Source: a virus
Lineage: Duplodnaviria; Heunggongvirae; Uroviricota; Caudoviricetes
Strand: one strand, 5' to 3'
IMG/VR virus record: IMGVR_UViG_2740892233_000004
DNA: 15,490 nucleotides
A program made the position numbers and the translations under genes. Positions 1-15,490 of this stretch are shown here, piece after piece (position 1 is the stretch's first letter; every line of letters starts with the position of its first letter). The notes beneath the pieces are model-generated. The model ran no database searches. It saw only the letters and a list, made by a program, of their open reading frames with translations, and was not told the origin of the DNA.

Positions 1-2
1 AC

Positions 3-173
3 ATCCAGACAGATGCAAAAGACCTGAATGTGATGTACCACAATGCGAAAGTGGCGACAAACAACCTGAAACTGGGAACCTTTGGCGCATTTGATAACGA
101 ATGGCATACGCTGGCTTTCCGCTTTGCCGGGAATAACAGCCTTCAGGTGACGCCGGTTATTGATGGTCAGGAT
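3..173 (+). CDS. C-terminal fragment of a large prophage protein with lectin (LamG/concanavalin-like) motif; possibly NanS-p-type esterase C-terminus. Partial at window start and at N gap
   Basis: Frame open from pos 3 with no upstream stop; translation ...NEWHTLAFRFAGNNSLQVTPVIDGQD. Product call is inference from the motif and from position upstream of a lysis cassette in an allelic segment. Confidence 0.45.
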
Positions 174-183
174 NNNNNNNNNN
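174..183. other. Assembly gap (10 N)
   Basis: Run of 10 N. Confidence 0.99.
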
Positions 184-248
184 ATCTTCACTGCCACAGG
201 GCGTTGCCCTGACCGGAGACGGGGGGAATAACCTGCTGGCAGCGTTCT

Positions 249-258
249 NNNNNNNNNN
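249..258. other. Assembly gap (10 N)
   Basis: Run of 10 N. Confidence 0.99.
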
Positions 259-259
259 A

Positions 260-523
260 GCGACAAACAACCTGAAACTGGGAACCTTTGGCGCATTTGA
301 TAACGAATGGCATATGCTGGCTTTCCGCTTTGCCGGGAATAACAGCCTTCAGGTGACGCCGGTTATTGATGGTCAGGATGGCACACCGTTCACGCTGACG
401 CAGTCACCGGTCAGTGCCTTTGCGGCGGATAAACTGCATGTGACAGACATTACCAGAGGTGCGACTTACCCGGTACTGATAGACAGCATTGCGGTGGAAG
501 TGAACAGCACAGACACTGCGGCA
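260..523 (+). CDS. Same lectin-like C-terminal domain, second allele; partial at both ends (N gaps)
   Basis: Translation ATNNLKLGTFGAFDNEWHMLAFRFAGNNSLQVTPVIDGQDGTPFTLTQSPVSAFAADKLHVTDITRGATYPVLIDSIAVEVNSTDTAA; near-identical to 3..173 with substitutions. Confidence 0.5.
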
Positions 524-533
524 NNNNNNNNNN
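524..533. other. Assembly gap (10 N)
   Basis: Run of 10 N. Confidence 0.99.
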
Positions 534-534
534 A

Positions 535-642
535 TTTGCGGCGGATAAACTGCATGTGACAGACATTACCAGGAATGCGACTTACCCGGTACTGATAGAC
601 AGCATTGCGGTGGAAGTGAACAGCACAGACACTGCGGCATGA
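535..642 (+). CDS. 3' end of lectin-like protein (allele), stop TGA 640-642
   Basis: Translation FAADKLHVTDITRNATYPVLIDSIAVEVNSTDTAA*; followed by an A7 run and a CCGCCA/TGGCGG inverted repeat. Confidence 0.5.
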   Translation, partial: FAADKLHVTDITRNATYPVLIDSIAVEVNSTDTAA

Positions 643-13157: not shown

Positions 13158-13164
13158 GTCTGAT

Positions 13165-13191
13165 AAGGAGGACGGGAGGCGTGCGCCTCCC
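13165..13191 (+). promoter_or_regulatory. AAGGAGG motif followed at once by a GC-rich perfect inverted repeat, just after the capsid stop
   Basis: AAGGAGG 13165-13171; GGGAGGCG TG CGCCTCCC 13174-13191; no T run after it and no good start codon in range. Confidence 0.3.
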
Positions 13192-13201
13192 GTAACAGGT
13201 T

Positions 13202-13423
13202 ATGGCAAAGATCCAGTATCTGCAGGGCACGCATGATGCCCGGGCCGGGGATATCCGTGATGTGGCACAGCCGTGTGCGGAGGTGCTGGTTCGCCTGGGA
13301 AAGGCGGAGTACATCACGGTGCGACGTCCGGCAGGTCAGAAAAAGAAACGTGATGCGGAGCATGGCGAATGTGGAACCTTTTACGGCGAACCCGAAAAAA
13401 CCAGAAATCAGGACGTGACGTAA
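13202..13423 (+). CDS. Hypothetical protein (73 aa) between capsid and portal; overlaps the portal start by 55 nt
   Basis: MAKIQYLQGTHDARAGDIRDVAQPCAEVLVRLGKAEYITVRRPAGQKKKRDAEHGECGTFYGEPEKTRNQDVT; weak ribosome-binding site; it is the only candidate filling the 211-nt capsid-to-portal interval. Confidence 0.3.
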   Translation: MAKIQYLQGTHDARAGDIRDVAQPCAEVLVRLGKAEYITVRRPAGQKKKRDAEHGECGTFYGEPEKTRNQDVT

Positions 13424-13814
13424 GAGAGGCGGGCTGGACCAGCCTGTTTCAGGCGGTGGCTGAGCCCTTTTCCGGCGCCTGGCAGCAGGGCGTGAAAGCC
13501 GATCCTGAAGCCGTCCTCTCCTTTCATGCGGTGTTTGCATGTATTTCGCTGATATCCCAGGATATCGCCAAAATGCGGCTGCGTCTTATGCAGACGGATG
13601 CGCATGGGATACGCAGGGAAACGCGCCGGGGGGATATTGCCCGCCTCTGTCGTCGTCCCAACGCCCAGCAGAACCGCATCCAGTTTTTTGAACTGTGGCT
13701 GAACGCCAAACTGCGTCATGGCAATACGGTGGTGCTGAAAATCCGTAATGCCCGGGGGCAGATCAAAGAACTGCGTATTCTGGACTGGAGCCGGGTTGAA
13801 CCTCTGGTGGCGGA
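13369..13814 (+). CDS. Portal protein (HK97-family type), N-terminal part, cut by N gap
   Basis: GGAG 9 nt upstream of ATG 13369; MWNLLRRTRKNQKSGRDVREAGWTSLFQAVAEPFSGAWQQGVKADPEAVLSFHAVFACISLISQDIAKMRLRLMQTD... Confidence 0.8.
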
Positions 13815-13824
13815 NNNNNNNNNN
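13815..13824. other. Assembly gap (10 N)
   Basis: Run of 10 N. Confidence 0.99.
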
Positions 13825-13826
13825 CC

Positions 13827-15488
13827 CAGGATATCGCCAAAATGCGACTGCGCCTGATGCAGACCGATACACAGGGGATCCGCCGTGAAAAACGGCAGGG
13901 GGATATTGCCCGTCTCTGTCGTCGTCCCAATGCACAGCAGAATCGTATCCAGTTTTTTGAACTGTGGCTGAACGCCAAACTGCGTCACGGCAATACGGTG
14001 GTGCTGAAAATCCGTAACTCCCGGGGGCAGATCAAAGAACTGCGTATTCTGGACTGGAGCCGGGTTGAACCTCTGGTGGCGGATGACGGCGAGGTGTTCT
14101 ACCGCATCACGCCGGACCGGAACTGCGGGATCACGGAGGCGGTGACGGTGCCTGCCAGGGAAGTGATCCACGACCGGTTTAACTGTTTTTTTCATCCGCT
14201 TGTGGGGCTGCCGCCGGTGTATGCTGCCGGGCTGGCGGCCACGCAGGGGCATCATATTCAGGCAAATTCAACGTCTTTTTTCAGAAATGGCGGCAGGCCG
14301 TCCGGGGTGATTGAGATCCCCGGCAGTATAACGGAAGAAAATGCGAAAAAACTGAAGAGCAACTGGGACAGCGGGTATACCGGCGAAAATGCGGGGAAAA
14401 CGGCGATCCTGAGCAACGGGGCGAAATATAACCCCACGACGTTTTCACCGGTGGATGCGCAGACGGTGGAACAACTGAAGATGACGGCTGAAATTGTCTG
14501 TTCGGTGTTCCGTGTCCCGGCCTACAAGATTGGCGTTGGCCAGCCGCCTTCCAGTGACAACGTGGAGGCGCTGGAGCAGCAGTATTATTCCCAGTGCCTG
14601 CAGACGCTGATTGAGTCCATTGAACTGTTACTGGATGAGGCGCTGGAAACGGGGGAAAACGAGAGTACAGAATTTGATGTCACCACGCTGCTGAGAATGG
14701 ACAGTGAGCGGCGCATGAAAACGCTGGGGGATGCGGTGAAAAATACGCTTCTCACGCCCAATGAGGCCCGTAAACGGGAGAACCTGCCGCCCCTGGCCGG
14801 CGGTGATGCACTGTATCTTCAGCAGCAGAACTACAGTCTGGAGGCGCTGTCCCGTCGTGATGCCCGTGAGGATCCGTTCGCGTCTGCCGGGAAAACAGTT
14901 TCATCACAGCTGCCTGACGGCGCATCTGACGGTAATAAGGCAATCAGTGAAACAGAGCATGATGCGGTGAAAGCGATGTTCAGGGGGGATACTGAGAAAA
15001 TGACGGAACGGGAACTGTCCATTATTCGTGCACTGGGAGAAGAATTCTCCACAGTGCTGGCGGATTTACAGCGCACATTTGAGGGGAAGATGGCCTCGCA
15101 GGCACAAGCGTTTGAAGAGAAACTGACTTCCCTGTCGGCGGTATTACAGAAGCATGTGACGGTGGATGAGGTGCGTCCGGTTCTGCAGGCGATGGTGGAT
15201 GACGCTGTGGGGGCCATTCCGGTACCGCGTGATGGTCGTGATTATGATCCGGATGTACTGCAGCAGGCGGTGAATGATGCGGTCGCAAATATTCCGCAGC
15301 CGGCGGACGGTAAAAGTCTCACCCCGGATGATGTGCGTCCGATGCTTGAACAGATGGTGAAGGAGGCTGTAAGCCATATCCCTGTTCCGCGTGATGGTCG
15401 TGACTACGATCCGGAAGTACTGCAGAAGGCGGTGAATGATGCGGTCGCAAATATTCCGCAGCCGGCGGACGGTAAAAGTCTCACCCCG
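13827..15488 (+). CDS. Portal protein (allele), continuing open to the window end; C-terminal extension with tandem repeats
   Basis: Frame open for 554 codons with no stop; core motifs FRNGGRPSGVIEIPGS, NAGKTAILSNGAKYNPTTFSPVDAQ, EIVCSVFRVPAYKIGVG. Not in the ORF track because no stop lies inside the window. Confidence 0.8.
15165..15488 (+). repeat. Two tandem 162-bp (54-aa) in-frame repeats in the portal C-terminal extension
   Basis: Unit 1 15165-15326 DEVRPVLQAMVDDAVGAIPVPRDGRDYDPDVLQQAVNDAVANIPQPADGKSLTP; unit 2 15327-15488 DDVRPMLEQMVKEAVSHIPVPRDGRDYDPEVLQKAVNDAVANIPQPADGKSLTP; the 3' 100 nt of each unit are about 95% identical. Confidence 0.85.
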
Positions 15489-15490
15489 GA

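Follow-up and report, generated by a model that had tools for sequence, protein, structure and literature searches.

The 15,490-nt stretch of DNA analysed here (the window) is IMG/VR record IMGVR_UViG_2740892233_000004, in which the late genes of a lambdoid phage lie on 17 segments (S1 to S17) separated by runs of N. The gene order annotated for this region in reference phages is SASA/NanS-p-type esterase, DUF1378, DUF826, holin, lysozyme, the antirepressor Ant, Rz, HNH endonuclease, TerS, TerL, a protease-capsid fusion, a small open reading frame (ORF) and portal. Pfam and PHROG scans of the ORFs that lie within segments returned TerL_ATPase, TerL_nuclease (twice), Peptidase_S78, Phage_capsid, Phage_portal, Phage_lysozyme (twice) and DUF6645. 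Judged by its sequence, the region is a lambdoid late region of the BP-4795 / Stx-converting phage type.

The window is the complete NCBI whole-genome shotgun record CCPX01000132.1 (1-15,490) of the isolate assembly GCA_000752875.1, and is neither an excerpt of a longer sequence nor a metagenome contig. Two ORF products that span gaps, and that carry XXXX at the N runs, occur on record exactly once, in CCPX01000132.1. A sequence pattern spanning an N-run junction had no other copy in collections of viral, genome-representative and metagenome contigs. A literature search on CCPX01 and GCA_000752875 found no paper citing the accession, its only match being the unrelated accession JACCPX.

We conclude that the record is very probably an assembly artefact, namely a scaffold of a draft Escherichia coli isolate assembly built from k = 65 nodes that derive from several (at least three) lambdoid prophages of the Stx-phage type, and not a continuous piece of genome. 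The initial annotation, made from the letters of the window, had read it as short-read contigs joined by 10 N and carrying paralogous lambdoid prophage alleles of one genome. That proposal is upheld here by the isolate-assembly record, by the k = 65 pattern at the joins and by matches to three separate prophage sites in one related chromosome.

Results

Segments and genes of the record

Counting bore out the 16 runs of exactly 10 N that had been reported, which leave 17 segments of 65 to 4014 nt. Segments were compared with one another by all-versus-all blastn, followed by an ungapped re-examination of each diagonal, and the matches between different segments had E-values of 1e-10 to 0, far past chance. 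Twelve of the duplicates join the 3' end of a segment to the 5' start of the next over 106 to ~540 nt at 77-99% identity (S1>S3, S3>S4, S4>S5, S5>S6, S6>S7, S8>S9, S9>S10, S11>S12, S13>S14, S14>S15, S15>S16 and S16>S17). Reference coordinates are given on L001 (BP-4795), L003 (the prophage of strain 99E2750), and L004 and L005 (the prophages of strain FWSEC0001 at 3.47 Mb and 1.19 Mb). All segments are on the plus strand.

The first four segments cover the end of the esterase gene. S1 (1..173) holds the 3' part of this SASA/NanS-p-type gene (DUF6645 in Pfam) and is identical to L001 1566-1738. S2 (184..248), at 65 nt the shortest segment and exactly k long, matches L001 1501-1565 at 100% and adjoins S1 at 1566. 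This orphan piece had been called impossible to place, but its 65 nt are those directly upstream of S1, at 100%, in BP-4795, Stx2_EH1910 and one FWSEC0001 prophage. Its first base is A in the window and C in L003 (strain 99E2750), a site that varies between references, and S2 is consistent with one branch of a single-nucleotide polymorphism bubble. S3 (259..523) presents the esterase 3' end as a second allele and repeats the last 121 nt of S1 with 2 mismatches; S1 ends 64 nt beyond the last mismatch and S3 begins on a mismatch. S4 (534..794) carries the esterase end and intergenic sequence, repeats the last 106 nt of S3 with 4 mismatches and a terminal run of 64, and is 99.2% identical to L001 1777-2037.

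The lysis genes follow. S5 (805..1613) contains DUF1378, DUF826 (allele 1) and the start of the holin gene, as identified with Pfam, and repeats ~203 nt of S4 at 77% identity. S6 (1624..2760) repeats ~540 nt of S5 at 83%, doubling the DUF826 gene (allele 2), and continues through a class II holin into the lysozyme gene, whose 5' three-quarters it contains (Phage_lysozyme in Pfam at 2307-2759). The lysozyme 3' part, in another allele, opens S7 (2771..4186), which goes on with Ant and a small ORF and stops 21 nt into Rz; the endolysin overlap between S6 and S7 pairs 2443-2760 with 2771-3088 (318 nt, 86.5% identity, 43 mismatches). The junction of S7 and S8 is the only one without an overlap. The gap at 4187..4196, inside the Rz spanin gene (window 4166-4631), stands in place of 12 nt, GTGATTATTGTC, which are identical between the same flanks in three references (L001, L002 and L004), and writing 10 N for these 12 nt breaks the Rz reading frame.

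S8 (4197..8210) starts in the 5'-truncated Rz gene and contains DUF3950 on the minus strand, the HNH endonuclease, TerS and the first 1264 nt of TerL, by Pfam; it is 99.65% identical to L004. S9 (8221..8865) takes allele A of the TerL 3' end into the protease-capsid gene, of which it has the first 25 nt; it is identical to L004 15856-16500 and repeats the end of S8 (8052-8210 versus 8221-8379, 159 nt, 3 mismatches, terminal run of 64). S10 (8876..9295) begins with the last 95 nt of TerL in allele B, contains a protease-capsid start at 9034 and is 99.5% identical to L005 12804-13223. At S11 (9306..10108), the TerL nuclease-domain region in allele B, the scaffold jumps back by ~1.5 kb; the segment is identical to L005 12001-12803 and lies before S10 in the reference, and its identity is 90.6% to S8 and 93.7% to S9. 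S12 (10119..10489) is a TerL 3' end in a BP-4795-like allele C with a protease-capsid start at 10465; it is 98.4% identical to L001 8426-8796 and shares its end point with S9, with 64 identical terminal nucleotides. Copies of the TerL 3' end thereby stand in S9, with the stop at 8777, in S10 as far as 8970, and in S12, with the stop at 10401; S11 has part of it. The protease-capsid gene starts at 8841 (S9), 9034 (S10) and 10465 (S12).

S13 (10500..10741), from the protease N-terminal region, repeats the last 242 nt of S10 with 3 mismatches and is identical to L005. As a block, S11-S12-S13 writes again the region of the S8 end, S9 and S10. S14 (10752..11154) carries the S78 prohead protease domain (Peptidase_S78) as a third allele of that place, with 14 mismatches to S10 and likewise to S13, and is 99.75% identical to L003; its start repeats the end of S13. 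S15 (11165..11977) repeats 266 nt of S14, with a terminal run of 64, covers the C-terminal part of the protease and the linker to the capsid domain, and corresponds to L001 9034-9846. S16 (11988..13814) comprises the capsid domain (Phage_capsid; gene end at 13157), a small ORF (13202-13423) and the portal start at 13369, and repeats 307 nt of S15, the overlap having 95% identity (11672-11977 versus 11989-12294). S17 (13825..15490) continues the portal gene from about codon 62 (Phage_portal, 1e-75) and ends inside a 162-bp tandem repeat; its overlap with S16 pairs 13556-13814 with 13825-14083 (259 nt, 91.5%).

Every duplicate listed in the initial annotation was recovered, that at 8052-8210 versus 8221-8379 exactly as given, and several lay beyond that list: those at S1>S3, S3>S4, S4>S5, S5>S6, S13>S14 and S14>S15, together with the S11-S12-S13 block. 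The mismatches within overlaps form internal patches of the kind typical of mosaic prophages. Fraying of contigs in an overlap-layout assembly would cluster mismatches at segment ends; no such clustering was found, and this explanation was set aside.

The duplicated blocks occur once in reference genomes

Taken literally, the record describes a prophage with genuine tandem segmental duplications, each interrupted by 10 unresolved bases, and Tandem Repeats Finder does list five of them as 2-copy arrays. Such duplications are absent from all five complete references, whose self-comparison shows only the 162-bp portal array. In each best match the whole 15.5-kb window falls on a single stretch of ~11 kb. 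The 15,490 bases are collinear with one 10.8-11.3 kb stretch, at 22624-33895 in BP-4795 and 61137-71959 in Stx2_EH1910, and references cover 93% of the window at 94.5-95.7% identity. Tiled on the 11,272-nt BP-4795 span, the segments leave 12 nt at depth 0, with 7964 nt at depth 1, 2580 at depth 2 and 711 at depth 3, figures that are approximate because S6 lacks the BP-4795 YdfR gene and S8 carries ~1 kb that is absent from BP-4795. Since the tiling covers only ~11.3 kb of reference, ~4.0 kb of the 15,330 non-N bases are redundant.

An N run also sits exactly at the copy boundary of every apparent repeat, and the boundaries follow a rule of k-1 = 64 nt (below) that has no biological meaning. 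Read as real, the duplications would disrupt the lysozyme, Rz, TerL, protease-capsid and portal genes. As far as sequence alone allows, a real tandem duplication is excluded, and we put its chances at next to nil. The possibility that the N runs were real unknown bases, left standing by the initial annotation, is likewise removed for 15 of the 16 gaps, which hide overlaps (negative distances); sequence is missing only at 4187-4196, where it amounts to 12 nt. Among the internal repeats of the window, only the 162-bp tandem array at 15164-15490 is genuine.

Segment ends and starts point to k = 65

The joins show a regular pattern. In 8 of 12 overlaps the upstream segment ends with an exact run of exactly 64 nt past the last mismatch (S1>S3, S3>S4, S8>S9, S9>S12, S10>S13, S14>S15, S15>S16 and S16>S17; P ~5e-21), and in 8 of 12 the downstream segment starts on a mismatched base (S3, S4, S9, S11, S12, S13, S14 and S16; P ~4e-8). 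These chance values are for at least 8 of 12 events and take account of the mismatch density of the individual overlap. In 8 pairs of different segments, the longest stretch of exact identity stops at 64 nt. Two pairs of segments abut exactly in reference coordinates, S2 being followed by S1, and S11 by S10 (12803/12804 on the FWSEC0001 prophage); the scaffold order is wrong in both, and the abutments fit graph adjacency.

These features resemble Velvet-type de Bruijn scaffolds, in which a segment opens on its first allele-specific base and runs k-1 beyond its last one, the shortest segment is k long and all gaps have a single fixed minimal length. The label of a Velvet node, according to the MetaVelvet paper, is the last nucleotide of each of the node's k-mers (PMC3488206). 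Because of this internal form, a node would start on its first allele-specific base and end k-1 = 64 nt past its last. The assembler would then be Velvet or a derivative of it.

SPAdes was rejected as unlikely on general grounds, as 65 is not a default k of that program and its scaffolds resume after a gap with the complete next edge, so that a segment would open with an exact run at the 5' end rather than on a mismatch.

A different origin for the same layout would be finished contigs that an external tool or the submitter ordered on a reference and concatenated with 10-N spacers. Spacers of fixed length are typical of such pipelines, and the order of segments is almost perfectly collinear with reference phages: the initial annotation had warned that order between segments is unreliable, yet along the reference 14 of the 16 steps from segment to segment go upward, and the warning holds only for S1>S2 and S10>S11. 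Those two steps are themselves hard to reconcile with sorting on a reference, which would not place S2 after S1 or S11 after S10. Finished de Bruijn contigs moreover keep a 64-nt prefix, so that the start on a mismatch in 8 of 12 cases argues against external concatenation, and a 65-nt contig such as S2 would normally, we infer, have been filtered out at an earlier stage. On balance external concatenation is decidedly improbable, and scaffolding within the assembler remains the preferred account.

Several prophage copies contribute to the path

The module occupies a median of 3 places per complete E. coli genome, with a maximum of 12-14. In the complete genome of O26:H11 strain FWSEC0001, S8 and S9 match the 3.47-Mb prophage at 99.65% and 100%. 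A different prophage, at 1.19 Mb, is matched by S10, S11 and S13 (99.5-100%), and S7 finds its best match at a third site, 3.648 Mb; these placements are best matches in a related genome rather than in that of the source isolate. The nearest sequence for S12 is BP-4795 (98.4%), and for S14 it is a prophage of strain 99E2750 (99.75%). S9, S11 and S12 are pairwise distinct at the TerL 3' end (16-29 mismatches), as are S10, S13 and S14 at the protease start (3-14 mismatches). With three pairwise-distinct alleles at both places, the isolate has at least three copies of the module.

The same alleles could be supplied by a mixed or contaminated culture, or by variants within a culture, in which the prophages are spread over several strains, one or a few to each; the assembly itself would have worked in the same way. 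This would agree with the finding that no single complete genome has all alleles at 100%. The record nevertheless belongs to an isolate genome assembly, many copies of the module per chromosome are normal, and three prophage sites of one O26:H11 genome already give the best matches for S7, for S8/S9 and for S10/S11/S13. A mixed culture is accordingly thought unlikely, and several prophages in one chromosome are the favoured source of the alleles.

Against complete genomes, the only segments that reach 100% are S9, S11 and S13 and the short S1 and S2. Even inside a segment, phase cannot be taken for granted, since the large ones attain no more than 99.1-99.7% identity to any complete genome and their differences are patchy. 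This patchy divergence of long segments could be natural mosaicism or allele switching via shared nodes.

A separate observation concerns TerS. Half of the differences between S8 and its best complete-genome match (7/14) fall within 60 nt, in a cluster at 6658-6716 (S8 positions 2462-2520); a short tract of recombination could explain it, as could a switch of alleles at a graph node that the copies share.

It is also conceivable, if extremely unlikely, that some alleles come from a heterogeneous culture in which co-resident lambdoid prophages actively exchange patches of late genes, and not from fixed copies. If this were true, the additional alleles, like the patchy 0.3-0.9% by which the long segments differ from every complete genome, would be traces of recombination still under way and not of static paralogy.

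Affected gene models

At least 10 of the called ORFs are truncated, duplicated or chimeric. That ORFs crossing gaps are artefacts, as previously suspected, is visible in their translations. The ORF at 9034..10401 (plus strand) runs from the protease N-terminus in S10 into the middle of TerL in S11 and then, in S12, again through a stretch of TerL already read; its translation has XXXX at both gaps, and 'GIVVGISQGWKLGG...' appears in it twice. The ORF at 10465..12018 (plus strand) crosses four gaps and has the N-terminal part of the protease written three times. The ORF at 6947-8230 is TerL cut short by the first TerL gap. Three chimeric proteins had no exact-sequence match in a collection of 15 billion proteins. 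The DUF826 genes at 1213-1485 and 1764-2009 are alleles and not tandem paralogues, and the same is true of the two lysozyme fragments.

Other features of the late region

The prohead protease (Peptidase_S78) and the HK97-type capsid domain form one fusion gene of 1938 nt (window 9034-13157; L001 8772-10709). Its position upstream of the portal gene is an unusual order relative to lambda and HK97, but it is already annotated in the references and hence not new. Between Rz and HNH, S8 has a slot of ~1 kb (4507-5549) that contains small hypothetical ORFs in the 3.47-Mb prophage of FWSEC0001, is mostly missing from BP-4795 and Stx2_EH1910, and is the interval in which strain 99E2750 has a PerC-family regulator. 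It looks like a variable, moron-type slot.

In the portal gene the window has a run of six G (G6) at 14983-14988, where all five references have G5 (L001 12266-12270, L003 12283, L004 19970, L005 16297). In the G5 form the portal consists of two overlapping ORFs in frames 0 and -1 (454 amino acids, then 419-473), which are annotated as 'frameshifted' pseudogenes or as two portal coding sequences. The G6 form is one open frame, and PHROG 2271, a portal profile of 859 positions, matches straight over the site. G6 occurs in 42 IMG/VR stretches and G5 in 76; among 83 phage records, 10 have G6 (e.g. phage 2851 and YYZ-2008) and 73 the form shorter by one base (e.g. BP-4795). Natural polymorphism or phase variation could lie behind the difference, or else the G5 phages could use a programmed -1 shift.

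The tandem repeat with a unit of 162 bp (54 codons) that lies distally in the portal gene, in its second half (window 15164-15490; L001 12447-13198), is genuine. BP-4795 has 4.6 copies at 95% identity and the record stops after two at 85%; it was probably this repeat that ended the scaffold.

Discussion

The arrangement of the record can be accounted for by the following sequence of events. The strain would carry at least three lambdoid prophages of the Stx-phage type, with 77-99% identity between their late regions. At k = 65, a de Bruijn graph would collapse identical stretches of at least 65 bases to one node and give allele-specific nodes for differing stretches. Read pairs would link nodes of different prophage copies, and the estimated distances between them would be about zero or negative, because nodes from different copies share the same relative position. 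The scaffolder would then lay these nodes in series with a minimum placeholder of 10 N between them, writing the nodes after a gap in Velvet's internal form, with the last nucleotide per k-mer. The outcome is a chimeric path from the esterase 3' end to the portal gene, with ~4 kb written two to three times, two node pairs misordered and one small true gap. That all 16 gaps stand at the 10-N floor fits 15 of them hiding negative distances.

Several observations weigh against this account or call for additions to it. Among 5,426 complete genomes, none contains every allele at 100% (the best values are 99.4% for S7, 99.7% for S8, 99.1% for S16 and 99.2% for S17), for which reason the single-genome origin of all alleles rests on the isolate-assembly record. 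Two exact matches exceed k-1, at 125 nt between S10 and S13 and 68 nt between S10 and S12, all other pairs being within it; S10 was probably extended via shared nodes during repeat resolution, which is an extra assumption. The 64-nt terminal run is missing in four overlaps, where the runs are 43 (S6>S7), 55 (S9>S10), 1 (S11>S12) and 1 (S13>S14), and the ends of these overlaps were presumably set by alleles outside this scaffold. S1 adjoins S2 exactly, as if it had no k-1 prefix, which is unexpected for the first node of a Velvet scaffold and suggests that a longer scaffold may have been split at a larger gap to give this record. No paper or metadata giving the name of the assembler was found. 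According to the Velvet manual, gaps estimated at less than 10 bp are written as 10 N, for which the literature gave no confirmation. The window thus departs from a typical Velvet scaffold in the two segment pairs that share more than k-1 bases and in the apparent lack of the S1 prefix, with the assembler itself, and 10 N as its floor value, a matter of probable attribution.

The artefact has a counterpart in the haplotypic (false) duplications of heterozygous diploid assemblies, in which two diverged versions of a locus likewise stand side by side over a gap, neither merged nor separated, the length is inflated and gene models are duplicated or chimeric. It differs in that the setting here is a haploid bacterial chromosome: the versions are paralogous prophages, as many as three cover one place, and the scale is hundreds of bases. 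The window shares its gene order, and 92-100% nucleotide identity per segment, with the late regions of lambdoid Stx-converting phages and of cryptic prophages of Shiga-toxin-producing E. coli (BP-4795 / Marienburgvirus, Stx2_EH1910 and O26:H11 FWSEC0001). None of these matches the whole path, the best whole-window identity being 95.7%, because the path switches alleles. Relative to BP-4795, the window is without the YdfR gene, and the ~1 kb that S8 has between Rz and HNH is present in FWSEC0001.

For users of the record, its length is inflated by ~4 kb and its sequence path switches among at least three prophages, and it is unsafe as a phage genome fragment and for gene counts, the building of protein families or allele typing. 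The rule of an end at k-1 and a start on a mismatch offers a quick, reference-free check with which other draft records could be screened, both for telling duplications made by a scaffolder from real ones and for recovering k. That many near-identical lambdoid prophages reside in Shiga-toxin-producing E. coli is already well known; the record is an artefact laid over this well-known biology, and its k-1 signature is a useful diagnostic for similar records.

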